From Gemmatimonadetes bacterium 13_2_20CM_2_65_7 (GTDB lineage: Bacteria > Gemmatimonadota > Gemmatimonadetes > Gemmatimonadales > GWC2-71-9), in contig MNDR01000083.1 in assembly GCA_001915025.1 (NCBI GenBank), forward strand, positions 151 through 64,150: 64,000 nt of DNA, written 5' to 3'. Below the pieces are notes generated by a model. That model did no database searches and had not been told where the DNA came from. It worked only from the letters and a program-made list of their open reading frames with translations. This document shows positions 11,649 through 29,300 of this stretch, piece after piece. Positions within the stretch are counted from its first letter, which is position 1. Each line of letters begins with the position of its first letter. The position numbers and the translations under genes are program-made.

Positions 11649-12551
11649 TCCCTCTTTCACGTAGCCGGCCGCGACGCCGCCCACGACCAGCGCGAGGCCG
11701 ACCCACCCGAGCAGTGTCAAGCGCTGGCTGAAAAGCGTGAGCGCAAGCAACGCCCCCACAACGGGCTCGACGGTGGCGGCAACTGATGCCGGCGCTGCTT
11801 CGATTCGTTTCACCGCCCCGAAGAAAAAGATATTGGCGGCGACCACCGATCCCGCAGCGAGTCCCAGCAAATCGCGCCATGCCGGCGGCGACGGCGGCCA
11901 GGCCGGCGGCCGGCCCCAGATCGACAGAGCGATCCAGATGAGCACGACACCGCCAATCGCTTCGAGGAACAAGACCTTGAGGACACCGTAGCGGGGCGCC
12001 GCATATCGCCCCATCAGCGTCGTCAATGCGTAGCTCAGCGCCGACAGCAATCCACCCGTAATGCCTGCGGCGATGCCCATGCGCGCCGCCTCCGCGCCGG
12101 CGTTGCTGCCGCCGGTCACCGTGAGCGCGACGCCGATCATGACGATGACCGCCAGCGCGATACGCGTTGCCGAGAGCTCTTCCTTGAGGATGATGCGGGC
12201 GAGCACGGCGACCATGACTGGCGCGGTGTACAGCAGTGCCGCCGCACCTGCGACGCCGACGCCCGCAATCGCGAACTGATACGCGATCTCGAACAGCGCG
12301 ACGAGGGCGCCCCCACCCAATCCGACCAACAGCCATCCCTTACGGTCTGTGCGGAAGAGCTCGCGACGGAAGAGCAGTCCCCAGATGGCTAACGCGATCG
12401 TGCCGATGAGCACGCGCCAGAAGCCGATGCTCGTCGCCGGCATGAGATCGTACAGACCGGTCGACAGCGGCCCGGTCGTTCCCCATGTCGCGCCGGCGGC
12501 GAGCGCGAGGAGATATCCGACAACGCGCTTTGGTCGTTGGAGTTCGGTCAC
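11598..12551 (-). CDS. EamA/DMT family transporter
   Basis: About 10 TM segments in two repeats, with LLYTAPV and ATVEPV. Convergent 51-bp overlap with the receptor gene. Confidence 0.88.
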   Translation of the reverse strand: MTELQRPKRVVGYLLALAAGATWGTTGPLSTGLYDLMPATSIGFWRVLIGTIALAIWGLLFRRELFRTDRKGWLLVGLGGGALVALFEIAYQFAIAGVGVAGAAALLYTAPVMVAVLARIILKEELSATRIALAVIVMIGVALTVTGGSNAGAEAARMGIAAGITGGLLSALSYALTTLMGRYAAPRYGVLKVLFLEAIGGVVLIWIALSIWGRPPAWPPSPPAWRDLLGLAAGSVVAANIFFFGAVKRIEAAPASVAATVEPVVGALLALTLFSQRLTLLGWVGLALVVGGVAAGYVKEGLKQQLEPQAEEPGRPV

Positions 12552-13363
12552 GAAGCCATTTTGTCCGCGGTGAGCTCACCGCGCAACACCGTCACGGCCT
12601 GCCCGGCGAGGCGCACGCGCCCGCTTCCGTCGAGCCGCACGCGCACAATGCCGCCGCGCGCCGACGCCTGGTAACCAGTCAGCGACTGCTTGCCGAGTTT
12701 GTCGCACCAGTACGGCGCGAGCGCGCAGTGTGCCGAGCCCGTGACGGGATCTTCGGGAACGCCGGACTGCGGCGCGAAGAAGCGCGATACGAAGTCGTAC
12801 TGCGCATCGCCTCCCCCATTCGCGCGGCTCGTGACGATGACGCCGCGGGCGGCGACGCGGCCGAGTGCGCCGAGGTCCGGATCGAGCCCTCGCACGGTCG
12901 ACTCGCTGTCGACTTCGACGAGATAGTCGAAGCGGCTGCGCCCCACGAAACGCGGCTTGATTCCCAACGCTTGGATCAACCCTGGTGGCGCTGGCGCAGG
13001 GGACGCTGGGGTTGCGGGGAAATCGAGCTCGATCCAGGCGTCGCGGCGATCGGCAGTCAACAGGCCGCTCTTTGTGTGGAAGCGCGCCTGGGTACTCGGC
13101 GTGAGATGCGCGTCTTCCCACAGCACGTGCGCGCTCGCCAGCGTGGCGTGGCCGCAAAGATCGACTTCGACGGCCGGCGTGAACCAGCGCAAATCATATC
13201 CATCCTGGCGACGAACGAGAAACGCGGTTTCGGCGAGGTTCATCTCGCGCGCGACGTTCTGCATCCACGCGGGTTCAGCGGCGTCGGGGAGAACGCAGAC
13301 CGCAGCGGGATTGCCCGCGAAGGGGCGGTTGGTAAACGCGTCGACTTGGGTTATACGAAGCAT
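12548..13363 (-). CDS. PhzF family (phenazine biosynthesis-like) isomerase
   Basis: QVDAFT..PFAGNPAAV, LRWFTP..EVDLCGHATLA and EDPVTGSAH. Start reset to 13363 (GAGGT upstream). Confidence 0.93.
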   Translation of the reverse strand: MLRITQVDAFTNRPFAGNPAAVCVLPDAAEPAWMQNVAREMNLAETAFLVRRQDGYDLRWFTPAVEVDLCGHATLASAHVLWEDAHLTPSTQARFHTKSGLLTADRRDAWIELDFPATPASPAPAPPGLIQALGIKPRFVGRSRFDYLVEVDSESTVRGLDPDLGALGRVAARGVIVTSRANGGGDAQYDFVSRFFAPQSGVPEDPVTGSAHCALAPYWCDKLGKQSLTGYQASARGGIVRVRLDGSGRVRLAGQAVTVLRGELTADKMAS

Positions 13364-13379
13364 GACCTCGCAATCTAAG

Positions 13380-14006
13380 CTATCCCGGCAATTGAAACGT
13401 TGTCTTGCCATGCCAAAAGCTGTTTTCGTGACCGATAATGAACACGCTTTCAGGATCCGCGTTCCGCAGGATGAGCCGCACCTGTCCCGCGTTCGCGGGA
13501 ATGTCGAACACGAGATCGGTTGTGTACGATTCGCCGGGAATGAGTCGTCGCTTCAAACCATCGATTGAGCCGACATACCGGTTGCCCTTCGAATCCACCA
13601 GCGCCACGTACCGACTGTTCGGCGACAATGACGCGTCCTTCGGACGCCACGGCGCGATTGTCTGCTCATCAAACCGCACTTTCACCGTGACGACGTGACG
13701 CACCTGGCCGCTCTGGAGAGTCTCGGATTTTGCCGCGGCAACGGAGTACGCGAGGTGACAGTCCACCTCGCAGATGTGTTTTTCCTCGCCGGGAGCGAGC
13801 ACGCGACTGTGGCTCGCAGCGGAAAAGCAAATCAGCAGTATCGCATAAGCGCCCACGCCACCGAGCAGCGCGCGCAGGCTGATCCGAGCGATCCGCTCGC
13901 GCTTCGTGACTCGCGCGAACACGTAGGTCACTGTTAGCGCCACGGCAGCAAGTATGGAGCCAAGGAACAACAGCACCGTGAATGGATTCAGGCCATCAGT
14001 GATCAT
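13380..14006 (-). CDS. Hypothetical membrane-anchored protein (2 TM plus beta-rich exported domain)
   Basis: Two hydrophobic N-terminal segments; overlaps the end of the upstream DUF4173-like gene. Confidence 0.7.
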   Translation of the reverse strand: MITDGLNPFTVLLFLGSILAAVALTVTYVFARVTKRERIARISLRALLGGVGAYAILLICFSAASHSRVLAPGEEKHICEVDCHLAYSVAAAKSETLQSGQVRHVVTVKVRFDEQTIAPWRPKDASLSPNSRYVALVDSKGNRYVGSIDGLKRRLIPGESYTTDLVFDIPANAGQVRLILRNADPESVFIIGHENSFWHGKTTFQLPG

Positions 14007-15504
14007 GGTGCATCTCCTTGATTGCGGCTGTGCACGTCTGCCGAAGCACCGCGGCGTCGTGGCTCACCAGTCGACGCGCCCGCGCTCGGCTCCAGTTCCA
14101 GGTCCGCCAATCGGCGTCGTCCTTATTCCAACGACTCACCAGACCACAGACGACAACGCGGCGGTCTCCGGCACCGAATTGTGGGAGCGCTTCGATGAGA
14201 GCGGGGACTGCGTCGGCGCCGAGCGTCAGGGCGTACTCGGCATCAAAGGGACGCTCGGCAACGGGACGGTTGAGATTTGTCTTGACGATGAATGCGTCGG
14301 GGTTCATGACGTGGAGCGCAGCCAGGATCCCGAATCCCTGCATCAATACGCCCAACGCGAACCGCTCGCGCCTACCCCGAAGCAGTGTCCACGTAAACCA
14401 GGCGAACACGCCCAGCAGCAAGAGCATGAATGCCGTCGCGTAGAGCCTGATCTCCGAGAGACCGAACGCGTCCACGTACAATCGCATCCGCTCGAACGCC
14501 GATGCCATGATCACGGCGAGCAGAATGAGAAGCAGAGCGGCGAGCCGCCGGAACGTCTGGATTTCAACGGTTGTGCCGCCACGGACCAGGAAGTCGGCGC
14601 CGAGCAACACCGGCAACACGAGCGCGCTGGCGGTCACCAGCTGAAAGAATCCCTGGCGCGCGTATTCGGCATACCTCAGACCGGTGGTGACTTGGACTAG
14701 GGCCGCACCACCGAAGAAGTAGCGGAGCTGAACGACTACGAACAGCAGGAAGAGCGCGTTCAGAAGGCCGAGTGCGGTAGCCATGGGAACGAGTCCGAGT
14801 CGCACGTTGCTGGCGCCGTACGGCATGGCGACGGGTTGGCCCAGCAGACTCCATCGGAGGTAGCCGGCGGTGATCACGGCCCAGAAGCAGAACAACATCG
14901 TGTGACTGACGAGGCTGGTGATGTCGAACGCGAACAAATTCGTGAGGACATTGCCAAAGACCTGATCAGCCGACGAGAAGAGCGCTGCGAATATGACGAG
15001 CAAGGGGGCAGCGACGAGCAGACCGACCAGAATGGCGCGGACGTTCCGGAGCCGACCTTCCCGCGGCAGCTCCTGCCACTGGACGTCCCGACCGACGAGC
15101 AACATCCCACCTGCGATGCTGCCGGCTGTGGCGGTCACACCGGCGCGCAGATAGTCGAGCAAGCGCCAGCCGCCGATCCGCTCGCCCTGGAGGCTCGACG
15201 CCGCCAAACACAGCGTGATGAAGAGCGCCAGCATATCGAACCTGGTAAGGACTGCCGCGTCTCTCCTCAGGAACGCCGCCCCCAGAAGCAGCGCGGTAAT
15301 CGCAAGCCACGGAGCATCCGGTCCGGGTTGCAGATGATGGCGGCGCACCAGCCATACTCCCCCGCCGACGAGGACGCAGGTGCAGAGCATGACATTCAGG
15401 CCCCACGGCATCGCGCGCAGCAGGGTGTCACCGGCGAGGCCCGCTCCCGCGGCGACGCCGAGGATCTCGAGACCCAGGCGGGTGCGGGGATTGATCGCGC
15501 TCAT
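13996..15504 (-). CDS. DUF4173/DUF4153-like polytopic membrane protein
   Basis: [46 protein letters not shown] and NPDAFIV..N. ATGA overlap with the uppS-like gene fixes the start at 15504. Confidence 0.8.
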
Positions 15505-19206: not shown

Positions 19207-19235
19207 TTGACAAGATCCGCAGCGCGGCATAGATG
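19207..19235 (+). promoter_or_regulatory. Candidate sigma70 promoter of the cyc2-cox operon
   Basis: Perfect TTGACA at 19207-19212, 17-bp spacer, weak -10 TAGATG. SD sequence GGAGGT at 19292-19297. Confidence 0.45.
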
Positions 19236-19301: not shown

Positions 19302-20711
19302 ATGGTCAGGCGGTTCCTGAAGGCCGCAGCCCCGCTGGCGATGTTGGTTTGCGCGGCCATGGCACCAAACCCCGGCGGCAGCACGGTGGCCGCCACCTAC
19401 ACCGCAGCGTACGCGACCTACACGCACCGAATCCCATCGTTCGCGCGCAAGTACAACCTGCCGTGTTCGGCGTGTCATACCGCGTGGCCGGAGCTGAATG
19501 CCTTTGGACAGGCGTTCCGCGACAACGGCTACCAAATGATGAATGACCGCGACTCCCCCATCTGGCAGAACCCGTCCTACATCCCCGTGACATTCCGCGT
19601 GACGCCGAACTGGCACCGCGAGGGCGCTACGAAACAACCGGTGGACCCAACCCCCGGCGTGCCCAGCTGCGTGTCGGCGACGGGCGTAGGCTGCGTCCCC
19701 AGGACGCTGATGCAATCGGGCTTCGACCTGTCAGGCATGGATTTGTGGACGGCGGGCACGATATACAAGAACATCTCCTTCGTCCTGCTTCCCTCGGCCG
19801 ACGCGAACGCGTCGTTCCACTTCGAGGCCGCGTTCGTGCGGTTCGACAACCTGGCGGACAATCGCTGGGTCAACTTGAAGGTGGGAAAGTTCGAGCTCGA
19901 CAACCTGATCTCGGAGAAGCGGTTCCTGTTCCTGTCCGGCAACGGCGGCGTGTATCAGTCATACCATTTCCTGCCGGCCGGCGACGCGAACGACTTCGGA
20001 TTGGGCGACAATCAGATCGGTGCCGAGCTGTCGGGACACTCGCAAAACAGCTACACGCGCTATGGTGTGGCGCTGTTGAGCACCTCGTCCGGGAACCCCG
20101 GTCTCGTGTCGAGCAACGCGTACGACACCTACCTCACGTTCAGTCACGCCATCGACGCCGGCAAGCTGGGTGTGGAGCGCCTCGGCGTCTACGCGTACCT
20201 GGGCCGACGGCCCACGTACTTCCAGACCACGGATTCCGGCGCAGCAATTCCCGGCACGGGGACGGGGAACAAGCCGTTTTATCGCGTCGGCCTCTCCGGT
20301 GACTTCTTCTTCGGCGACTTCGAGTTGCTGCCGCTGGTGATGCACGCGTCGGACGACAAGTATCTGGCCAACGCGACGCCCTCGAACGGCACGCTGCCCG
20401 CTGGTGCCCAGGCTGCGACCTGGAATGCCGGATTCCTCGAGGCGCACTACTACGTCAGCCCGCAGCTCGTTTTCACCGGGCGGTTCGAAACGGTGCGGAT
20501 GGCGCAGCAGGCCATTTCCGGCACGCAGAAGAACCTCGGCGATGTGGATGCATTCTCGGGGGGCGTGCGCTGGTATCCGATCATGTTCAGCCGCGCCGGG
20601 TTGAGCTGGCATACGGAGATCTCCGCGGTGAGGATGCAGGGGTCGGTCTTTGCCGGGAGCGACCGCGTGTGGGCCACCAGCGTGTTCAGCGGACTGGACT
20701 TCGACTTCTAG
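19302..20711 (+). CDS. cyc2: Cyc2-like fused monoheme cytochrome c / outer-membrane porin
   Basis: Signal-like N-terminus, then IPSFARKYNLPCSACHTAWPELNAFGQAFRDNGY (PxFAR...CxxCH...PxL..FG..F...GY). About 380 aa of amphipathic beta-strands follow, ending in Phe (GLDFDF). Confidence 0.85.
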   Translation: MVRRFLKAAAPLAMLVCAAMAPNPGGSTVAATYTAAYATYTHRIPSFARKYNLPCSACHTAWPELNAFGQAFRDNGYQMMNDRDSPIWQNPSYIPVTFRVTPNWHREGATKQPVDPTPGVPSCVSATGVGCVPRTLMQSGFDLSGMDLWTAGTIYKNISFVLLPSADANASFHFEAAFVRFDNLADNRWVNLKVGKFELDNLISEKRFLFLSGNGGVYQSYHFLPAGDANDFGLGDNQIGAELSGHSQNSYTRYGVALLSTSSGNPGLVSSNAYDTYLTFSHAIDAGKLGVERLGVYAYLGRRPTYFQTTDSGAAIPGTGTGNKPFYRVGLSGDFFFGDFELLPLVMHASDDKYLANATPSNGTLPAGAQAATWNAGFLEAHYYVSPQLVFTGRFETVRMAQQAISGTQKNLGDVDAFSGGVRWYPIMFSRAGLSWHTEISAVRMQGSVFAGSDRVWATSVFSGLDFDF

Positions 20712-20724
20712 GGAGGGCCCGATC

Positions 20725-21573
20725 ATGAGACCGATCATTCGGCGCATGGCGCGCATGGCGGCTCTGAGCGTTCTCCTCGGAGCGGGGGGAACGACTGCGG
20801 GCTGGGCGCAAGAAAGCCAAGTCGGCAGCATCACCGGCCACACCGACGCTGGGAAAAAGTTGTACCGTCGCTACTGCATCGGCTGCCATGGGCCCAGCGG
20901 CGACGGAGCCGGCGAGAATGCACCGTGGATCGATCCCAAGCCGCGTGACTTCACGCTCGCCGTCTTTAAGTGCCGCTCGACGCCGAGCGGGACGCTGCCG
21001 ACTGATGAAGACCTGTTCAACGCGATCACCCGGGGGTTCGTCACGACGTACATGCCGCAGTGGCGTCCCCTCACCGCCCAAAACCGCACCGATCTCGTGG
21101 CGTACATCAAGACGTTCTCGCCGAAGTGGCGGAGCGGTAAGGCCGGAACACCGATCACGGTTCCGCCGGAGCCGGCGCCCACCGCGGAAAGCATCCTGCG
21201 CGGCCGCCAGCTATTCCAGCGGATGGAATGCTGGAAGTGCCACGGCCCTGCGGGCCACGGCGACGGTCCCTCGGCCGCGACGCTTACCGACAACAAAGAC
21301 CTGCCCATCCGGCCGTACGACTTCTCGACCGGCACGCGGTTCATGTGCGGAGCGACCAACCAGGATCTCTACCGCATCTTCATGACCGGCCTGGATGGCT
21401 CGCCGATGCCGTCGTTCGCCGACCAGCTGAAGCCCGCTGAGGCATGGGATCTCGTGCACTTCCTCCGGACACTGCAACCGATCGAAACCCGGGAGGCCGC
21501 GATCTGGCGGGACTGGTTGAACACGCACGCGCGTGAGCTGAAGCCGATTGGCCCTGGAGGAGGTGGACGATGA
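20725..21573 (+). CDS. Periplasmic diheme c-type cytochrome
   Basis: GGGAGG SD and signal peptide. Two homologous domains with CIGCH and CWKCH, each followed by a distal Met (YMPQW, PMPSF). Confidence 0.9.
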   Translation: MRPIIRRMARMAALSVLLGAGGTTAGWAQESQVGSITGHTDAGKKLYRRYCIGCHGPSGDGAGENAPWIDPKPRDFTLAVFKCRSTPSGTLPTDEDLFNAITRGFVTTYMPQWRPLTAQNRTDLVAYIKTFSPKWRSGKAGTPITVPPEPAPTAESILRGRQLFQRMECWKCHGPAGHGDGPSAATLTDNKDLPIRPYDFSTGTRFMCGATNQDLYRIFMTGLDGSPMPSFADQLKPAEAWDLVHFLRTLQPIETREAAIWRDWLNTHARELKPIGPGGGGR

Positions 21574-22277
21574 TGCTTCGGATTTTCGCAGGGTCCATGC
21601 TGGTGGTGCTCGTTGGAGCTGCGGGGCGCGGACCATTCCCCGCGGGCACGATCAATGGCAAGGTCACGTATACCGGCACCCCGCCCAAGGCACACCCGAT
21701 CGACATGGCGAAGGAACCAAACTGTGTGACCCAACACCCAACGCCGGTCTCCACCCAGGACGCGGTGACCGGCCCAGGCAACAGCGTTCGCTATGTCGTC
21801 GTCTACATTGCCGCCGGTGACCAGGGCGCCCCCGCGGCGACCGACACCGTTCATTACGATCAGAAGGGTTGCATGTACATTCCGCACGTGGCGGCAATGC
21901 AGGTGCACCAGCCGCTCGCGATCTTCAACGATGACCCGCACTCCCACAACATCCACCCGCTCGCTCGAATCAATCCGGAGTGGAACAAGTCGCAGCCCAA
22001 GGGAGCGCCCCCAATCCGGACCACGTGGGAGCAGCCGGAGTTCATTGCGGTCAAGTGCAATGTGCACCCCTGGATGCACGGCTATTTCGCGGTGCTCGCG
22101 ACGCCGCATTTCAGCGTGACCGATACCACCGGTGCCTTTATGCTCGCGGGACTGCCGCCGGGCAAATACACGGTGACGGCGTGGCACGAGCGCTTTGGGA
22201 CGCAGAGTCAAGAGGTGACAATTGGCGGAGCCGAGACGAAGACCGTCAATTTCGTGCTGACCGCGAAGCCCTACTAA
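21570..22277 (+). CDS. Exported cupredoxin-like protein within a carboxypeptidase-regulatory-like Ig fold
   Basis: Signal peptide; HNIH plus C-N-V-H-P-W-M loop (type-1 Cu ligand spacing as in amicyanin CxxHPxM); GLPPGKYTVTAWHE. Confidence 0.8.
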   Translation: MMLRIFAGSMLVVLVGAAGRGPFPAGTINGKVTYTGTPPKAHPIDMAKEPNCVTQHPTPVSTQDAVTGPGNSVRYVVVYIAAGDQGAPAATDTVHYDQKGCMYIPHVAAMQVHQPLAIFNDDPHSHNIHPLARINPEWNKSQPKGAPPIRTTWEQPEFIAVKCNVHPWMHGYFAVLATPHFSVTDTTGAFMLAGLPPGKYTVTAWHERFGTQSQEVTIGGAETKTVNFVLTAKPY

Positions 22278-22280
22278 GCC

Positions 22281-23084
22281 ATGGGGCGGTTGTTTGCCGT
22301 CGTCGTGGCCGTAATCGCGCTGGTCTCCGCGGCGATCTTCGCGCTGCACATCTGGTGGCTGCCCCCCGACATCTCTGTCCACGGCGGCGGGATCGATCGT
22401 CAGCTGAACGAGACGATGGTCGTCGCTGGCGTGCTGTTCGTGCTCGCGCAGCTGGCGCTGGCCGCGTTCGTCTGGCGTGCGGGCGAGAAGCAGCAACCGC
22501 GACCAGTCAAGGTATTTCCGGGCGGCGCGACGCCGATGGTCGTCGTTGCTACCGTGCTGGTCGGCTTCGAAATCCTGGTGCTGACATTCGTGGGCTCGAA
22601 GCTGTGGGCGGGCGTGTACCAGACGCTGCCCGCGCCGGGTTCCTTACAGATCGAAGTCCAGGCCGAGCAGTTCGCGTTCTATTTCCGCTACGCCGGCAAG
22701 GACGGGAAGTTCGGCGGCATGCATCCCGAGCTGATGAACGATGCGACCGAGAACTTCTTCGGGCTGGATCCCGCCAATGACACGACCGCTCGTGACGACA
22801 TTGTCGTCGCGAGCCTGGTGATCCCGGTAGATCAGCCCATCCTGCTGCAGATGCACGCGAAGGACGTCAATCATTCCTTTTACGTGCCGGAGCTGCGCAT
22901 CCAGCAGGACTTCGTGCCTGGCATGGTGATTCCGCTGCATTTCACGGCGACGATCCCTGGGAAGTACGAGCTGGTATGTACGCAGCTGTGCGGGCTGGGG
23001 CACTATAACATGCGCGCGTATGTCGAAGTGAAGACGGCCGCCGATTTCAGCCAATGGCTCAAGCAGAAGGAGGCCGAGCAGTGA
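22281..23084 (+). CDS. coxB: Cytochrome c oxidase subunit II (CuA)
   Basis: TM helices, DVNHSFYVPELRIQQDFVPG and CTQLCGLGHYNM. Confidence 0.95.
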   Translation: MGRLFAVVVAVIALVSAAIFALHIWWLPPDISVHGGGIDRQLNETMVVAGVLFVLAQLALAAFVWRAGEKQQPRPVKVFPGGATPMVVVATVLVGFEILVLTFVGSKLWAGVYQTLPAPGSLQIEVQAEQFAFYFRYAGKDGKFGGMHPELMNDATENFFGLDPANDTTARDDIVVASLVIPVDQPILLQMHAKDVNHSFYVPELRIQQDFVPGMVIPLHFTATIPGKYELVCTQLCGLGHYNMRAYVEVKTAADFSQWLKQKEAEQ

Positions 23085-24829
23085 CCGCTCCGGCGCACGT
23101 GCACGCGGCACCGCCGCAAAGCTTCCTGCGCAAGTACGTCTTCAGCGTCGACCACAAGGTGATCGGCCGGCAATACCTCGATCTGGCGCTCGTCGCTGTG
23201 GTGACGGGGATGGTGTTGTCGTGGATCATGCGCTTCCACCTCGGCTTTCCAGACACTGCTATACCCGGCCTCGGGAAGGTCGCGCCGACGGGCGCCGCCG
23301 GCGGGGTGATCACGCCGGAGTACTACCTCGAGCTGATGACGATGCACGGCACGATCATGGTCTTCTTCGTGCTGACGACGGCGCCATTCGCGGGCTTCGG
23401 CAACTATGTCCTGCCGCTTCAGGTGGGCGCCGAAGATATGGCGTTTCCGCGCATCAACATGATGTCGTTTTGGGTGACCTTGCTCGCGTTTCTCGTCCTC
23501 GTCGCGGCCTTCTTTATCGGCGATGGCCCGCCGCTGTCGGGATGGACGGCGTACGCGCCGCTCAGTGCGGTCGGCAAGGACGCGGGCCCGGGCCAGGGCA
23601 TGGGTCAAACGCTCTGGGCCTTCTCCATTGCCATCTTTTGCATAGCGCAACTACTGGGGGCCCTCAACTTCATTGCCACCACGCTCGATCTGCGCACCAG
23701 AGGAATGTCGCTCGCGCGGCTGCCATACTCGACCTGGGCGTGGTTCATCACCGCCGTGATCGCGCTGATCGCCTTCGCCGTGCTCATGCCCGCCTGCATT
23801 CTGTTGATTCTCGATCGCGTGGCGGGCACGAGTTTCTTCATTCCCGCCGGGCTCGTGCTCAGCGATCGCCTCCAGCCGCACGCAGGGGGATCCCCGCTGT
23901 TGTGGCAGCACCTCTTCTGGTTCTTCGGGCATCCGGAGGTGTACGTTGCGATCCTGCCCGGGTTCGGGATCGTCTCGCACATCCTGCCGGTGTTTACCCG
24001 CAAGCCGCTGCTCGGACCGCGAGTCTTTATCGCCTGCCTGATCGCGATCGCCTTTCTCAGCTACACGGTGTGGGGTCATCACATGTTCCTGAGCGGGATG
24101 AACCCCTTTTCGGCGACGCTCTTTTCCGTACCGACGCTGGTGATCACCATTCCGGCGACGATCATCACGCTGTTGTGGATCGGCACGATCTACGGAGGAC
24201 GGCTGCGCTTCACGGCGGCGTCGCTATTCGCGCTCGGCTTCGTCTCGGTGTTCGTGAGCGGCGGCATCAGCGGCTTCTTTCTGGCGCAGCCGTCCACCGA
24301 CATCTACCTCCACGGCACCTACTTCGTCGTCGCGCATTTCCACTTCGTGATGGGCGTTGCGGCGATGTTCGGGATTTTCGCGGGCACGTATTTCTGGTTC
24401 CCGAAACTATTCGGCCGATTCATGAACGAGACGCTGGGGAAGTGGCACTTCTGGCTCACGTTGATCGGCGTGTATTGCATTTTCATGCCGATGCACTACC
24501 TCGGGCTCGCGGGCAACGTGCGTCGCTACTCCGCGTTCACGGACGATTACTTGAAGCCGCTGATCCCGCTGCATCGCTTCATCACGATCGCGGCGCTCTT
24601 TACGGGCGCCGTGCAGCTCATCTTCCTCTTCAATCTCTTCCGCAGCCGGTTCCGGGGAGCGAAGGCGCCGGATAATCCGTGGGAGGCCACCACGCTCGAG
24701 TGGTCCACGTCCTCACCGCCGCCGGTGGACAATTTCGGCGGCCGTCATCCCGTCGTGACACACGGCCCCAACGAATACGGCGTCAATGATGGACGCGGCC
24801 GCGACTACATCATGCAGGCGGCGGACTGA
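23081..24829 (+). CDS. coxA: Heme-copper oxygen reductase subunit I, A1-type
   Basis: DHKVIG, TMHGTIMVF, DMAFPRIN, WFFGHPEVY, VWGHHM, VAHFHFV and RRY. GTG overlaps the coxB stop. Confidence 0.96.
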   Translation: MTAPAHVHAAPPQSFLRKYVFSVDHKVIGRQYLDLALVAVVTGMVLSWIMRFHLGFPDTAIPGLGKVAPTGAAGGVITPEYYLELMTMHGTIMVFFVLTTAPFAGFGNYVLPLQVGAEDMAFPRINMMSFWVTLLAFLVLVAAFFIGDGPPLSGWTAYAPLSAVGKDAGPGQGMGQTLWAFSIAIFCIAQLLGALNFIATTLDLRTRGMSLARLPYSTWAWFITAVIALIAFAVLMPACILLILDRVAGTSFFIPAGLVLSDRLQPHAGGSPLLWQHLFWFFGHPEVYVAILPGFGIVSHILPVFTRKPLLGPRVFIACLIAIAFLSYTVWGHHMFLSGMNPFSATLFSVPTLVITIPATIITLLWIGTIYGGRLRFTAASLFALGFVSVFVSGGISGFFLAQPSTDIYLHGTYFVVAHFHFVMGVAAMFGIFAGTYFWFPKLFGRFMNETLGKWHFWLTLIGVYCIFMPMHYLGLAGNVRRYSAFTDDYLKPLIPLHRFITIAALFTGAVQLIFLFNLFRSRFRGAKAPDNPWEATTLEWSTSSPPPVDNFGGRHPVVTHGPNEYGVNDGRGRDYIMQAAD

Positions 24830-24831
24830 TC

Positions 24832-25407
24832 ATGGCCGCCGTGATGCCGCCCCCTCCGCTCACGACGCGACCCACTGCCACCGTCACGGAGGCGCCGCGG
24901 GCGCAGCCCGGGCGGACAGGCATGTGGATCGCGATCGCAACGATCTCCATGTCCTTCGCGGCGTTGACCAGTGCCATGGTGGTGCGGCAGAGTGGCGCTC
25001 CCGACTGGCGGCATTTTCACCTGCCGTCCATCCTCTACGCCAACACCGCGGTTCTCCTGATCAGCAGCCTCACGCTCGAGTGGGCGAGGCGGCGATCGGC
25101 GGCAGCATTGTCGGTGACGCTCGGCCTCGGGCTCTTGTTCGTGGCTGGACAGATCACTGCGTGGCGCGAACTCAGCGCGCAGGGGCTGTTCCTCGCGACG
25201 GCGGCGAGTAGCTCGTTCTTTTACGTCTTCACGGCGCTGCACGGCCTGCATGTGATGGGAGGTTTGGGTGCTGTCGGATATCTCCTCCAGCGGCGCCTGG
25301 TGGCGGGCCGAGTCGCACCCACAACGTTCGCGGCCACCGCGTTGTACTGGCACTTCATGGCGGTGCTGTGGCTGTACCTGCTGGTCCTCCTGGTGGCGCG
25401 CGTATGA
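24832..25407 (+). CDS. coxC: Cytochrome c oxidase subunit III family protein (copy 1)
   Basis: GMWIAI, NTAVLLISSLT, FFYVFTALHGLHVMGG and LYWHFM. Confidence 0.88.
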   Translation: MAAVMPPPPLTTRPTATVTEAPRAQPGRTGMWIAIATISMSFAALTSAMVVRQSGAPDWRHFHLPSILYANTAVLLISSLTLEWARRRSAAALSVTLGLGLLFVAGQITAWRELSAQGLFLATAASSSFFYVFTALHGLHVMGGLGAVGYLLQRRLVAGRVAPTTFAATALYWHFMAVLWLYLLVLLVARV

Positions 25408-26015
25408 GCCACAGCGCGGCGCTGGCGGCGAGCGAGCCCTCTCCGTATCAAATCCCGTCGCGCAAGCTCGGCATCTGGATGTTCATCCTCGCCGACGCGG
25501 CGACATTCGGTGCGATGCTGTTCGCGTATGGCTATTTGCGCGTGGCCAATCCCGACTGGAACCGCCCGTTCGCGTTCTGGCCATCGATCGTGAACGGCAT
25601 CGGGATGACCGTGATTTTGCTAACGAGCAGCCTCACCATGGTCGCCGCGATGCTGGAGTCACAGCGAGGGCGCACCAGCGCGGCACTGCGCTGGCTCGGC
25701 GCGACAATGGCGCTGGGCGCGCTGTTCGCAGCGTTGCACCTGCGGGAATGGGTTGCGCTGATCGGCAGCGGATGGAGGTTGTTCCGGAATCCACTTGGCG
25801 GCACGCCGCTCGTGGGCGCGACGTTCTTCAGTATCACGGGGCTTCACATGCTCCACGTGATTAGCGGTGTCGTCGTGATCGGCGTGATTGGACTCGGCTT
25901 TCGGCGGGGCCGTTTCACGGCCAGTCATGTCGAGATCACGGGCCTCTATTGGCACTTCGTAGATCTGGTCTGGATGTTCGTGTTTCCGCTCGTCTATCTC
26001 TTGAACATGCGCTGA
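25404..26015 (+). CDS. coxC: Cytochrome c oxidase subunit III family protein (copy 2)
   Basis: KLGIWMFILAD, FFSITGLHMLHV and GLYWHFVDLVWMFVFPLVYL. ATGA overlap with copy 1. Confidence 0.9.
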   Translation: MSHSAALAASEPSPYQIPSRKLGIWMFILADAATFGAMLFAYGYLRVANPDWNRPFAFWPSIVNGIGMTVILLTSSLTMVAAMLESQRGRTSAALRWLGATMALGALFAALHLREWVALIGSGWRLFRNPLGGTPLVGATFFSITGLHMLHVISGVVVIGVIGLGFRRGRFTASHVEITGLYWHFVDLVWMFVFPLVYLLNMR

Positions 26016-26024
26016 GGATCGGCG

Positions 26025-26306
26025 ATGAAGCGCTACGTTGTGGTGTGGATGGGATTGCTGGCGATCGTTGCAGCTGAGGTGGTGATTACGCTCGCCCGCC
26101 CGGCGACTTTGGTTCTGCTTGCGGTGTTGCTTGCGCTGGCAATCGTGGAAGGCGGACTCGCACTCTTGTACTTCATGCATCTCAAGTATGAGCGACGCAA
26201 TCTGTTGTGGAGCCTGATTCCGACGCTTGTCATCGTCCTAGTACTTATGGGGCACTTCTTTCCGGATGCATTCCGCCTGATGCATCAGCGGGGCACCGCG
26301 CCCTGA
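26025..26306 (+). CDS. coxD: Cytochrome c oxidase subunit IV family protein
   Basis: Three TM segments and the LYFMHLKYE motif. Confidence 0.88.
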   Translation: MKRYVVVWMGLLAIVAAEVVITLARPATLVLLAVLLALAIVEGGLALLYFMHLKYERRNLLWSLIPTLVIVLVLMGHFFPDAFRLMHQRGTAP

Positions 26307-26620: not shown

Positions 26621-27292
26621 ATGCAACGGTCACCGCTGACACTCCTGCTCGTACTCAGCGCGGTCCAAGGTCCGGCGACACGCGGCGCGCACGTGACCGG
26701 CAGAATCGTGATCCTGGAGAAGGACAACAAGCCGTCGCCCGATCTCGACGATGCGGTGCTGTATCTCGAGGGAAACGCCGCCGCGCCGGTCAAACCGGTG
26801 ACCGTCGAGATCGCCATCACGGACAAGACGTACGCGCCGCATGTGGTGGTCGTCCCCGTCGGATCGACGGTGCGCTTTCCGAATCACGATCCCTTCAATC
26901 ACAACGTCTTCTCGGTCAGCGAGCCGAATCAATTCGACCTCGGCCTGTACGGCCGCGGTGACGCCAAGAGCCATACGTTCACGAATCCGGGACTCGTGCG
27001 CGTGTACTGCAACGTGCATCCGCGCATGGTCGCCTACGTGCAGGTCATGGCGAACCGGTACTACGGGCAGCCCGGGACCGACGGCAGCTTCACGATCGAC
27101 AACGTCCCGGCGGGCCGATATCGGCTGCACGTCTGGCACGAGCGCATTCCAACGGAGATCGTGCGGGACGTGACCGCAGGTGGCGATTCCACCGTGCAAA
27201 TCGCGCTGAACGCTCGCGGCTACCACTGGGAACCACACCGTAACAAGTACGGACGCAACTATCCCACCAATGCCGGACGCGAGCGCTACTAA
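26621..27292 (+). CDS. Second exported cupredoxin-like/Ig-fold protein
   Basis: Signal peptide; VRFPNHDPFNHNVFS, YCNVHPRM and VPAGRYRLHVWHE. Confidence 0.82.
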   Translation: MQRSPLTLLLVLSAVQGPATRGAHVTGRIVILEKDNKPSPDLDDAVLYLEGNAAAPVKPVTVEIAITDKTYAPHVVVVPVGSTVRFPNHDPFNHNVFSVSEPNQFDLGLYGRGDAKSHTFTNPGLVRVYCNVHPRMVAYVQVMANRYYGQPGTDGSFTIDNVPAGRYRLHVWHERIPTEIVRDVTAGGDSTVQIALNARGYHWEPHRNKYGRNYPTNAGRERY

Positions 27293-29300
27293 ACCGGCGT
27301 TCGGGCTCACCGCAAAGATCTTTCTCGCCTCGACCCTGCTGGTCGTGGCAGTGCTCGGTGTCACGTTTGGCCTCACGTCCATTCAGGCGAACCGCACGGC
27401 GGACGCGTCGATTCACCGAGCCCTCCTGGCCACGCGCCGCGCGGTCGACGACTATCTGGCCGCGCGCACGCGCACGCTGAGCCGCGCCAGCACCGTCGCC
27501 ACCGACGTGCCCCAATACCGCCAGCGGCTCCTGAACCAGCGGGATCGTGCCGAAGCACTCGATCAGGCGGACGACGTGCGCGGCCTGATCGGCGCGGCGT
27601 GGGTTTTAGTGACGAACAGCGAGGGGGTTCTCATCGCGCGCACCGACTACCGGGAGCAGTACGATCGGGACCTGTCGGTGGCGCCGCTCGTCGCCAATGC
27701 GCTGAGCGGCGATCAGACGAGCGGCGCGTGGCTCGATGACGTGCAGGGAACGATGTTCATCGCGATCGGGACGCCGCTGCGCGACCGTCCCACCGCGGCG
27801 CCGCTCGGCGCCCTGGTTGCGACCTATCAGATCGACGATTCGCTCGCCCAGGCGATCAAGCAGACCACCAATTCCGACGTGGTGTTCTTCTCGCTCGACA
27901 CGCTCAATCGGCCGGTCGTGGTCGGCAGCACGGTTCCCGCGCAGGAGATCGGTCCGGTGTTACGCGACGCGGTCCGCGCCGAGTCGCTCGCCGCCGACAC
28001 GGGTGGGGCGGGCATGGCGCTCGTTGCGTCGATGGGTGGCCAGCATCTCATCGGCCTCGCGGGCGCGATCCGTTCCCCGGGCGGGGACGTCAGAGGCGGC
28101 TTTGTGGCGCTCCGCTCGCGCGAGGCGGAGCTGGCGGCATTCAATGCGCTGCGCCGCACGATGTTCTTCGCGATTGGGTTGGGGATCGTGCTGGCGCTGG
28201 TCTTCGCGTTCGTGCAGGCGCGCCAGATCAGCGGGCCGGTCCGGCGACTCGCGCTGGCGACACGGCAGGTGCAGGACGGCGACTACAGCGTCAACATCGA
28301 CGTGAAATCGAAGGACGAGATCGGGGTCCTGTCACAGGCGTTCAAGAGCCTCGTCGAGGATCTGAAGGAGAAAGCGGCGCTGGTCGATTACATGATGGCC
28401 GCGTCCGGCGCCGCGGCCACGCAGCCGCTTGCGTCCGTCCCGACCGTCATCAGGGACGCGGCCGGCGGTCAGATGCGACCGGGTGCGGTGTTCGCCGGCC
28501 GCTACGAGGTGAAAGAAATCCTCGGCGCGGGAGGAATGGGCGTCGTATATCGCGCGTTCGATCGCGAGCTGCAAGAGCCGGTCGCCATCAAGACGCTGAG
28601 GCCGGAAGCGATGGCGGGCGGCACAGTCGCGCTCGATCGCTTCAAGCAGGAAATCCGCCTGGCGCGCCGCATCGCGCACCGCAACGTCGTGCGCACGTAC
28701 GATCTCGGCGAAGTGAATGGGACGTACTACCTCACGATGGAGTACGTCGAAGGCACGTCGCTCAAACAGCTCATCGCTTCGCGCGGACGGTTACCGGTCG
28801 CCGTGACGTTGACGGTCGGCAAACAGTTGTGTCGAGCGCTCGAAGTCGCCCACGCCGAAGGCATTATTCACCGCGACATCAAACCGCAGAACATGGTCGT
28901 CGATCCCAGCGGTTTTCTGAAGGTGATGGACTTCGGTATCGCGCGGCTCGCCAATCCGCCCAAGGGCAAAGGGCTGACCGAGGCGGGGATATCGATCGGA
29001 ACTCCCGATTACATGTCGCCCGAGCAGCTCTCCGGCGCCGATCTCGATCCACGCAGCGACCTCTATTCGGCGGGTGTGGTGCTGTTCGAGTGTTTGACTG
29101 GCCGTGTGCCGTTTGAAGCAGACACGACGTGGGCGCTCGTCGCGAAGCATCTGGAGGAGGAGCCGCCCAATCCGCGCACACTCAACGCGGACGTACCGGA
29201 GGCTCTGGCGATAGTGATTCTTAAGGCGATGGCAAAGGATCGTGAGAAGCGATTCCCGACGGCGGCGGAGATGTTCGACGCCCTGGCGCGCATCGGCTGA
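27270..29300 (+). CDS. Membrane Ser/Thr protein kinase with Cache-like sensor and HAMP domain
   Basis: TM, extracytoplasmic domain, TM, HAMP (GDYSV...DEIGVLSQAF). Kinase motifs LGAGGMGVVY, VAIK, HRDIKPQN, DFG, GTPDYMSPEQ and SDLYSAG. Confidence 0.93.
   Translation: MPDASATKPAFGLTAKIFLASTLLVVAVLGVTFGLTSIQANRTADASIHRALLATRRAVDDYLAARTRTLSRASTVATDVPQYRQRLLNQRDRAEALDQADDVRGLIGAAWVLVTNSEGVLIARTDYREQYDRDLSVAPLVANALSGDQTSGAWLDDVQGTMFIAIGTPLRDRPTAAPLGALVATYQIDDSLAQAIKQTTNSDVVFFSLDTLNRPVVVGSTVPAQEIGPVLRDAVRAESLAADTGGAGMALVASMGGQHLIGLAGAIRSPGGDVRGGFVALRSREAELAAFNALRRTMFFAIGLGIVLALVFAFVQARQISGPVRRLALATRQVQDGDYSVNIDVKSKDEIGVLSQAFKSLVEDLKEKAALVDYMMAASGAAATQPLASVPTVIRDAAGGQMRPGAVFAGRYEVKEILGAGGMGVVYRAFDRELQEPVAIKTLRPEAMAGGTVALDRFKQEIRLARRIAHRNVVRTYDLGEVNGTYYLTMEYVEGTSLKQLIASRGRLPVAVTLTVGKQLCRALEVAHAEGIIHRDIKPQNMVVDPSGFLKVMDFGIARLANPPKGKGLTEAGISIGTPDYMSPEQLSGADLDPRSDLYSAGVVLFECLTGRVPFEADTTWALVAKHLEEEPPNPRTLNADVPEALAIVILKAMAKDREKRFPTAAEMFDALARIG

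Follow-up and report, generated by a model that had tools for sequence, protein, structure and literature searches.

The stretch of DNA analyzed here (the window) comprises 64,000 nucleotides of contig MNDR01000083.1 (assembly GCA_001915025.1, positions 151 to 64,150 of the forward strand) from Gemmatimonadetes bacterium 13_2_20CM_2_65_7, and encodes at 23054..24829 the haem-copper oxidase (HCO) subunit I CoxA. The analysis indicates that this CoxA is probably a working A1-type O2 reductase, that it belongs to a dispersed soil clade in which loss of the K proton pathway is a fixed trait, and that it is the terminal member of a rus-like gene module, probably fed by Fe(II). The module consists of genes for a Cyc2-like porin-cytochrome, a dihaem cytochrome c, a cupredoxin, the oxidase subunits CoxB, CoxA, two CoxC and CoxD and, in the window, a second cupredoxin. 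All features are given in window coordinates and lie on the plus strand.

The 591-residue product of coxA matches the Pfam family PF00115 (COX1) with 443 bits and solved A-type subunit I chains with E-values from 1e-100 to 7e-112. Residue numbering was fixed by two sub-segment phmmer searches against Rhodobacter sphaeroides subunit I (1m56_A), which returned gap-free matches of CoxA residues 94-143 to residues 98-147 (offset 4) and of CoxA residues 347-424 to residues 338-415 (offset 9). The K-channel positions of CoxA lie in the helix VIII segment PTLVITIPATIITLLWIGT(I) at 24131..24190, of which PTLVITIPATIITLLWIGT corresponds to residues 360-378 as read from the translation of the open reading frame (ORF). 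Within this segment, the ungapped match to 1m56_A equates Ala368 (24155-24157) with T359, Ile371 (codon 24164-24166) with K362, and Leu374 (24173-24175) with S365; in the printed alignments with the bovine and mycobacterial chains, Ile371 is likewise paired with their Lys ('iptgvk' and 'vptgik'). The other match sets H98, N117, D128 and N135 as the equivalents of H102, N121, D132 and N139, and shared motifs do the same for N205 (N207; GALNF), for H293, E295 and Y297 (H284, E286 and Y288; GHPEVY), for H342/H343 (H333/H334; WGHHMF) and for H428/H430 (H419/H421; VAHFHFV). All six His ligands (H98, H293, H342, H343, H428, H430) and the helix VI Tyr297 are thus present, and the D channel (D128, N117, N135, N205), ending in helix VI E295 (GHPEV), is complete. 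A preliminary description of the window, made from the sequence alone, had reported a gapless helix VIII alignment with the changes T359->A, K362->I and S365->L, and the 1m56_A matches show this to be correct in every detail; they and the motifs also uphold its account of the D-channel residues, E286, the cross-linking Tyr and the six His as intact.

The canonical K pathway is also altered on the side of subunit II. CoxB (22281..23084; 267 residues; CTQLCGLGHYNM), which carries the CuA site, matches Pfam COX2 with an E-value of 2e-12 and R. sphaeroides subunit II (1m56_B) with a phmmer E-value of 4e-15, and scores 112 bits against TIGR02866, under the cut-off of 147.7. In the phmmer alignment ('spleiawt' over 'tpmvvvat') the position of the K-channel entrance Glu, E101, is occupied by Val88 (22542..22544). 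A manual count on the phmmer alignment gives 42 versus 41 residues between this position and the first CuA-domain strand, which supports the register. A Glu at the E101-equivalent position was found in none of 59 linked CoxB sequences (0/59). On residue alignment, the canonical K pathway is truly dismantled in both CoxA and CoxB. With I371 and A368 in CoxA and V88 in CoxB, the protein departs from the K-channel part of the two-channel definition of the A family; it is classed as an A-type oxidase by homology and tree position, and as an atypical one by that definition. The motif GHPEVY, with its Glu, assigns the CoxA clade to the A1 type, a new point of this analysis.

The lysine is also missing from the close homologues, genome orthologues and linked CoxA sequences. 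Among 121 close homologues, made up of the query and its 120 nearest clusters (77-88% identical; several carry the name Gemmatimonadales in their sources), the K362 column reads V59, A26, T16, I9, M5, L5 and S1, with Lys in 0/121, and the T359 column reads A117, S2 and M2. Conservation of the D channel, of E286 and Y288 and of the His ligands extends to 120-121 of these 121 sequences, and Tyr297, the three CuB His, E295, D128 and the Asn residues are strictly kept (121/121). Lys was likewise found at the K362 position in 0/21 genome orthologues and in 0/52 readable CoxA sequences linked to a porin-cytochrome in other phyla (I15, V12, M9, A8, L5, T2, S1). Such variability (V, A, I, T, M, L, S) is what is expected of a site that no longer carries a proton.

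The genome from which the window derives provides internal controls, and soil DNA from other runs confirms the codon. The host genome has two further COX1 genes (contigs 21 and 72), both Lys-bearing (VPSAIKVFNW and IPTGVKIFNW), and its caa3-type CoxB retains 'ALEIGWT'. Contigs from three further soil DNA runs of three studies (X3, X5, X6), compared after leaving out two runs flagged as a possible source, cover at least 24076-24346 with 0 differing letters, and the comparison lists no variant from 24131 to 24459. The preliminary description had allowed that the codons might be assembly errors; this was checked, and the three runs are identical at the codon, with no Lys in the 121 homologues. 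As a separate observation, the Pfam match of the caa3-type coxA of the host genome (G000 contig 72, ~9992-14234; L003/L004) breaks off after profile position 308, the part from 351 onwards being in a different frame, and its long ORF turns to nonsense past helix VIII, so that an assembly error or a broken gene is possible there.

In order to place CoxA in its genetic context, 20 loci were fetched for gene-order comparison. The order from dihaem cytochrome c to coxD (dihaem c, cupredoxin, coxB, coxA, coxC, coxC, coxD) is complete in 20/20 loci, and the porin-cytochrome lies upstream in 19/20, the 20th being cut by a contig end. Only the second cupredoxin, cupB, and an adjoining Ser/Thr kinase gene are restricted, to 3/20 loci, all of the window's genus. 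Orthologous CoxA (at least 79% identity, the next best match being at most 50% identical) was identified in 28 of 301 Gemmatimonadota genomes, the window's included, and all 28 holders fall in two families of one order. The tally includes four genomes flagged as unpublished (G182, G057, G157, G097), all of them non-holders. An orthologous porin-cytochrome occurs in the identical 28 genomes (in four pieces in G217), and neither a CoxA nor a porin-cytochrome orthologue was found in the other 273 Gemmatimonadota genomes, 16 of them weakly matching the N-terminal part of the porin-cytochrome. The expectation voiced earlier, that K-less CoxA sequences form a clade and co-occur with a cyc2 gene, is thus borne out for CoxA of this type, which form a clade with a Shimodaira-Hasegawa-like approximate likelihood ratio test (SH-aLRT) value of 100 and co-occur with the Cyc2-like gene in 28/28 holders. 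Since related genomes are not independent, the co-occurrence indicates a module inherited as a unit and is not a statistical association. The weak matches in the 16 other genomes (e.g. G008:C79, G238:C1 and G128:C184) are frames of 318-544 residues with partial likeness to the porin-cytochrome at 28-60% identity; they involve mostly the N-terminal haem part, are not tied to a K-less oxidase, and suggest a wider cytochrome-porin family in the phylum.

The module is found well outside the Gemmatimonadota. A scan of 185,579 species genomes with the porin-cytochrome alignment returned at least 576 relatives, mainly in Acidobacteriota and Gemmatimonadota, of which 80 loci were kept, from metagenome-assembled genomes (MAGs) labelled Acidobacteriota (most), Gemmatimonadota, Chloroflexota, Eisenbacteria, Candidatus Cybelea and Bacillota. 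Linkage across phyla was scored on the 66 loci with at least 4.5 kb of downstream sequence. A linked CoxA of the clade, 66-86% identical to that of the window, is present in 52 of these 66 loci, and frameshifted copies are present in 2 more. In 12/66 loci (L056, L060, L070, L083, L087, L091, L095, L103, L108, L116, L124, L134), mostly from Acidobacteriota, the trio of porin-cytochrome, dihaem cytochrome c and cupredoxin occurs without cox genes in the stretch; in some of them the cupredoxin lies upstream instead, and the trio may feed another acceptor there. Identity at this level between phyla suggests that the module has spread horizontally. A 7475-base contig (L062) from a MAG labelled Chloroflexi carries a porin-cytochrome, dihaem cytochrome c, cupredoxin and coxB 98-100% identical to those of the window; this near-identity, while the window's relatives are Gemmatimonadales, makes it probable that one of the two bins is mislabelled. 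An Acidobacteriaceae MAG (L085:2003-3541) encodes a canonical, Lys-bearing A2-type coxA (SHPAVY, VPSAIKVFNW) ~6.5 kb upstream of a porin-cytochrome and a K-less coxA, and so offers a natural side-by-side pair.

The gene that opens the module encodes a Cyc2-like fused cytochrome-porin (19302..20711; 469 residues from the Met at 19302, within an ORF that opens at 19233). The protein has a single haem motif, CSACH (residues 55-59 of the 469-residue form), preceded by a hydrophobic N-terminus, and a C-terminal FDFDF. A structure model built from a 20-row alignment (mean predicted local distance difference test, pLDDT, 58; predicted template modelling score, pTM, 0.61) contains 17 strand segments, two of which (150-155 and 158-166) are adjacent, giving ~16 strands. 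Foldseek searches with this low-confidence model returned OprP (2o4v_A, E 2.2e-11) as the best match and OprO (4rjw) at rank 4, with template modelling scores (TM-scores) of ~0.5. No Pfam or NCBIfam family reaches its cut-off for this protein, the only Pfam match being BBP2 (18.7 bits versus 26.2) and NCBIfam returning none, and its database relatives are all named 'hypothetical protein'. In a protein atlas it falls with unnamed Acidobacteriota clusters, and the nearest named cluster, with 20% Porin_O_P members, serves as a lead only. Keffer et al. (2021; PMC8406198) describe Cyc2, in the accessible part of their text, as having a signal peptide, one CXXCH motif and a 16-strand porin resembling OprO and OprP. 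To the extent of that description, the window's protein is similar in its signal-peptide-like N-terminus, one CXXCH and length of more than 400 residues (365-400 or more being expected of Cyc2), and its low-confidence model may have the ~16 strands and the likeness to OprP and OprO; it is a probable iron-oxidising outer-membrane cytochrome.

Downstream of the porin-cytochrome, and co-directional with it, follow the remaining genes of the block. The dihaem cytochrome c (20722..21573; CIGCH and CWKCH) matches Pfam Cytochrom_C in 2 stretches (7e-24); its ORF opens at 20650 and the start is uncertain. Its best solved relative is 6h5l_B, a 'conserved hypothetical cytochrome protein' (E 1.5e-56), and none of its 13 solved matches at E <= 0.01 is named cytochrome c4. 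The next gene, cupA (21570..22277), encodes a cupredoxin-like protein (H...CNVHPWM, with Cys-x2-His-x2-Met read from the sequence) with an Ig-like CarboxypepD_reg domain (4e-11). Past coxB and coxA lie two subunit III-like genes, coxC1 (24832..25407; Pfam COX3 6e-11) and coxC2 (25368..26015; Pfam COX3 9e-13), each present in 20/20 loci, the subunit IV gene coxD (26025..26306; Pfam COX4_pro 1.6e-10) and, after a gap of 314 bases, cupB (26621..27292), which encodes a second blue-copper protein (YCNVHPRM; Pfam Copper-bind 2.9e-5), also with a CarboxypepD_reg domain and ~30% identical to cupA. The best solved relative of CupB is the type 1 blue copper protein 5fc9_A (E 1.1e-6), and its 36 solved matches at E <= 10 include no rusticyanin, the best being a type 1 blue copper protein, NirK domains, plastocyanin and amicyanin. 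A gene for a HAMP and Ser/Thr protein kinase (27270-29300) overlaps the end of cupB, accompanies it in the three loci of the window's genus, and may regulate the module.

This arrangement recalls the rus operon, for which the order cyc2-cyc1-cup-coxBACD-rus is given in the consulted part of PMC10654088. The window presents the same succession of an outer-membrane cytochrome, a c-type cytochrome, a cupredoxin, coxB, coxA, coxC, coxD and a further cupredoxin, with cupA in the position of 'cup' and cupB in that of rus. The available text of a preprint by Degli Esposti et al. (bioRxiv 10.1101/2020.03.01.968255) describes the K-channel Lys (K354(Pd)) of COX1 as changed to Ile and similar residues in acidophilic Fe(II) oxidisers, with loss of the COX2 entrance Glu E78 and an essentially conserved D channel. 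As far as this text goes, CoxA and CoxB of the window share all three features, namely an aliphatic residue in place of the helix VIII Lys, a replaced COX2 entrance Glu and a retained D channel. The same text reports rus-like clusters in Gemmatimonadetes MAGs, some with other cytochromes c and duplicated COX3, and the layout of the window is exactly of the type so described. An outright statement that the Gemmatimonadetes COX1 are K-less was not found in the consulted passages of its sections 3 and 5-8. The printed paper (Front Microbiol 2021, PMC8239418) reports, in the portion available, repeated independent loss of the K channel. A bioRxiv preprint on Ferrigenium straubiae (Gallionellaceae; 10.64898/2026.01.22.701106) states, in its accessible part, that subunits I and II of an A-family COX in an Fe(II) oxidiser 'lack the conserved K-channel', with a consequence it calls unclear; the operon given there is coxBA11C, no cyc2 is mentioned next to it, and the likeness to the window is one of description. 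The literature search returned nothing further on K-less oxidases in Gemmatimonadota or Acidobacteriota. A K-less oxidase beside a Cyc2-like gene is therefore largely known, and the window adds a Gemmatimonadales member.

These precedents also bear on a premise of the preliminary description, namely that substitution of K362 cripples A-type oxidases. It stands for mutants of model enzymes, but it is not transferable to natural enzymes, since K-less COX1 and COX2 with an intact D channel have, in the partial texts cited above, already been described in Fe(II) oxidisers. Several differences from the known systems accompany the likeness. The acidophile COX1 is called A2-type in the available preprint text (10.1101/2020.03.01.968255), whereas the CoxA of the window is A1-type, the two being compared by description; the dihaem cytochrome and cupredoxins of the window, unlike those of the rus operon, are without match to solved cytochrome c4 or rusticyanin chains; the haem A synthase gene is on another contig of the host genome and not in the operon, as distinct from acidophile rus-type clusters; and the module of the window belongs to Gemmatimonadota, Acidobacteriota and other bacteria from soil rather than to known acidophilic lithotrophs. 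With canonical A1-type aa3 oxidases (R. sphaeroides 1M56, Paracoccus denitrificans 1AR1/1QLE), which match over the whole length with E-values of 1e-104 to 3e-106, the CoxA of the window shares the six His, Tyr288, E286, D132, N121, N139 and N207 (R. sphaeroides numbering), together with a CuA subunit II; it differs from them in T359A, K362I, S365L and the change of E101(II) to Val, and in a subunit III that is split or duplicated.

On the basis of this architecture, a path for electrons and protons can be proposed. The Cyc2-like outer-membrane cytochrome-porin would accept electrons from outside the cell, with dissolved Fe(II) as the most likely donor; in the periplasm, the dihaem cytochrome c, together with one or two cupredoxins, would pass them to the CuA of CoxB, from where they would reach haem a, the haem a3-CuB centre and O2. 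The protons that canonical enzymes take up through the K pathway would come via the D channel or via a remodelled route. At the entrance of the D channel, Glu127 (AEDMAFP; 23432-23434) directly precedes Asp128 and adds an acidic residue that is present in 92% of the clade and replaced by Pro, Arg or Lys in Lys-bearing relatives.

The second of these options, in which the K pathway has been relocated, was assessed by comparing the clade with 86 Lys-bearing sequences, which identified 53 distinguishing positions in CoxA. None of the 53 is a compensating Lys or Arg, and a substitute of this kind was rejected. The preliminary description had named a compensating Lys at the same spatial position as the finding that would overturn it; no such Lys was found in the alignment. 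Two invariant residues, new here, may instead mark a remodelled route. CoxA Thr365 (24146-24148), in the helix VIII segment, corresponds to R. sphaeroides A356 and lies on the T352/T359/K362 face, one turn above T359; the column is Thr in 99% of the clade and in 52/52 sequences across phyla, versus Ala or Gly in 85/86 Lys-bearing sequences. CoxB Glu97 (22569..22571), in the middle of transmembrane helix 2 (TM2) and 9 residues past the E101-equivalent position, is Glu in 21/21 genome and 58/59 linked CoxB sequences, the exception (L129) being also without D132. A predicted CoxA-CoxB complex, which served for a list of interface residues and not as evidence of binding, places CoxA residues 365-366, 369-370 and 372-374 and CoxB residues 94-95 and 97-98 in the interface, with CoxA 370 contacting CoxB 87. 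Its score of 0.92 (best of 3 controls, 0.00; the mark is reached by 116/157 solved complexes and 2/215 mismatched pairs), with at least 97% of contacts shared between runs and a partner pLDDT of at least 87, concerns a textbook pair with solved relatives, so that the pass may reflect memory and shows likeness, not binding by this copy.

A relocated pathway of this type would use hydroxyl and carboxylate groups at the interface of helix VIII and CoxB TM2, running via Glu97 and Thr365 and feeding Tyr297, like the Lys-based channel of model enzymes, possibly with Thr369 and Thr372 as further participants. We regard it as an improbable reading, yet the most credible of the alternatives. The near-invariance of Glu97, and of Thr365 against the Ala or Gly of Lys-bearing sequences, speaks for it, as do the Thr or Ser found at CoxA position 372 in 110/121 close homologues, the absence of a Glu at the depth of Glu97 in the aligned chains of R. 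sphaeroides and Thermus thermophilus caa3, and the inclusion of helix VIII residues 365-374 and CoxB residues 94-98 in the predicted interface. Against it, an antiparallel count from the 370/87 contact sets Glu97 closer to residue 360, the Thr369 column is poorly conserved (T95, A25, L1; n=121), a buried Glu could be structural or bind a lipid or a cation, and the route so far has no entrance residue. In the B-family oxidase ba3 of T. thermophilus, the route is built from helix VIII Ser, Thr and Tyr residues and a subunit II Glu, with no Lys, which makes it a precedent for a remodelled route, although helix VIII of CoxA has Ala and Ile where ba3 has Ser and Thr. The two proteins are also distant (E ~1e-10), and CoxA keeps a D channel. 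The B family is described as being without one in the available part of PMC11214002. It is accordingly rather unlikely, if conceivable, that the soil clade has rebuilt its K channel with a CoxB carboxylate, Glu97 and Thr365 forming a Lys-free route at the interface of subunits I and II. If true, this A-type oxidase would have a second channel of a new kind beside its full D channel, and would be tuned to a high-potential extracellular donor via the Cyc2-like porin. Another peculiarity of CoxA near subunit II is a 12-residue insertion relative to mycobacterial subunit I (GLVLSDRLQPHA; residues 265-276, 23846-23881) in the periplasmic loop before helix VI. Within it, Asp271 and His276 show no variation over an alignment of 17 rows, and CoxA residues 264-273 and 280-282 contact the CuA domain in the predicted complex.

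A shift in function is considerably less probable than a relocated pathway. Under this explanation, the enzyme would not be an energy-conserving O2 reductase, but would serve as a non-pumping or weakly coupled electron sink that removes toxic Fe(II) or Cu(I), or act as a peroxidase or an NO reductase. It would fit a host in which two canonical oxidases serve ordinary respiration, a module with a patchy, accessory-like distribution (28/301 genomes), and the failure to find an autotrophy marker in the genome, which is 82% complete; model enzymes mutated at K362, moreover, still react with peroxide. Against such a shift, the module keeps both coxC genes and coxD, and the hallmarks of O2 reduction and D-channel pumping are strictly conserved in 121/121 homologues. 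The NO-reductase variant was dropped, because the Tyr and all CuB His are retained; HCO-type NO reductases are, according to the accessible text of PMC11214002, without the Tyr. The last explanation, that the substitution is an artefact of assembly or binning or belongs to a decaying gene, was rejected as having next to no likelihood: the host assembly is a MAG in 101 contigs with 82% completeness, the caa3-type coxA on one of its other contigs appears broken and a near-identical contig (L062) was binned under another phylum label, but identical contigs come from three other runs, Lys is absent from the K362 position in more than 190 related sequences (orthologues, homologues and linked CoxA), the coxA frame is open with all catalytic residues present, and CoxA identity is held at 79-90% across two families of the order.

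The phylogenetic extent of K loss was analyzed on a broader set, the 150 best 50%-identity representatives, which is biased towards the query; here the K362 column holds Lys in 84, another residue in 55 and a gap in 11. On a tree of 74 rows, inferred with the helix VIII columns omitted, the Lys/non-Lys state changes at least 9 times. The query clade (SH-aLRT 100) is joined, at 100, with the Lys-bearing P0166 and a K-less group missing two CuB His, and its nearest Lys-bearing neighbours are P0166, P0121 and P0147; its nearest neighbours do not include another K-less clade with an intact centre. The approximately unbiased (AU) test rejected a topology that unites the 20 K-less rows found in that half of the tree (p = 0.009), for a group picked after viewing the tree. 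A single ancient K-less clade is ruled out by the tree and by this test of a post hoc group, and K loss is, as far as these alignments indicate, polyphyletic among the relatives, a point new here. If the proposal of a K-less clade is taken to cover K-less A-type sequences at large, it does not hold: they are not one clade, given the at least 9 changes on 74 rows and the AU result (p = 0.009).

Two other K-less groups on this tree merit description. In the nearest sister group of the query clade (P0130, P0140, P0236, P0138), two CuB ligands are replaced (H284->Q or D; H333->G, Q or R) and D132 is changed to E, the helix VI Tyr is kept, and Glu286 is kept in 3/4 (not in P0138); this group may represent a kind of HCO derivative not described before, in which the active site is changed. 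Long COX1 proteins of ~800 residues (P0188, P0203, P0221, P0223, P0228, P0237, P0246, P0262 and others) form a separate clade, which has Gln, in one case His, at the K362 column and often Glu at N207.

Returning to the reading of CoxA as the K-less O2 reductase of a rus-like, Fe(II)-fed module, several points weigh against it. CoxA scores 577 bits against the NCBIfam model TIGR02891 (CtaD_CoxA) and so does not reach the cut-off of 670.75. The likeness to the rus operon, as judged from gene content, is one of layout and protein classes only, and the Cyc2 assignment fits by architecture and a low-confidence model (pLDDT 58). The 12/66 loci without cox genes indicate that the trio is not bound to the K-less oxidase, and the invariance of CoxB Glu97 and CoxA Thr365 could be a sign that the pathway was rebuilt and is not absent. 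Enzyme turnover, the proton uptake route, pumping and Fe(II) as the donor are all features that we infer. A RuBisCO large subunit was not found in the host genome, which is 82% complete, and the remaining genes of the window encode peptidases, an oligopeptide transporter and efflux functions; taken together, these do not indicate iron lithoautotrophy. An accessory, mixotrophic or protective role is just as likely as one in energy conservation. Regarding expression, one RNA run (X20) covers a small share of the stretch, including a 204-base contig (23945-24148; depth 2.8) that is identical to the window and ends before the codon. This contig was not counted as evidence of expression, because it stops short of the codon and may derive from DNA carry-over.

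In work on model enzymes, reduction of the binuclear centre is taken to require the K pathway. A-type oxidases from nature that are K-less in both subunits, and yet strictly conserved, constitute test cases for which proton route can be dispensed with, and CoxB Glu97 and CoxA Thr365 allow a direct mutational test. The clade is common, the relatives of its linked porin-cytochrome coming mainly from Acidobacteriota and Gemmatimonadota, which rank among the most abundant soil phyla and are usually seen as heterotrophs. If the module does oxidise Fe(II), it would be a widespread, so far uncounted, marker for iron cycling in soil.

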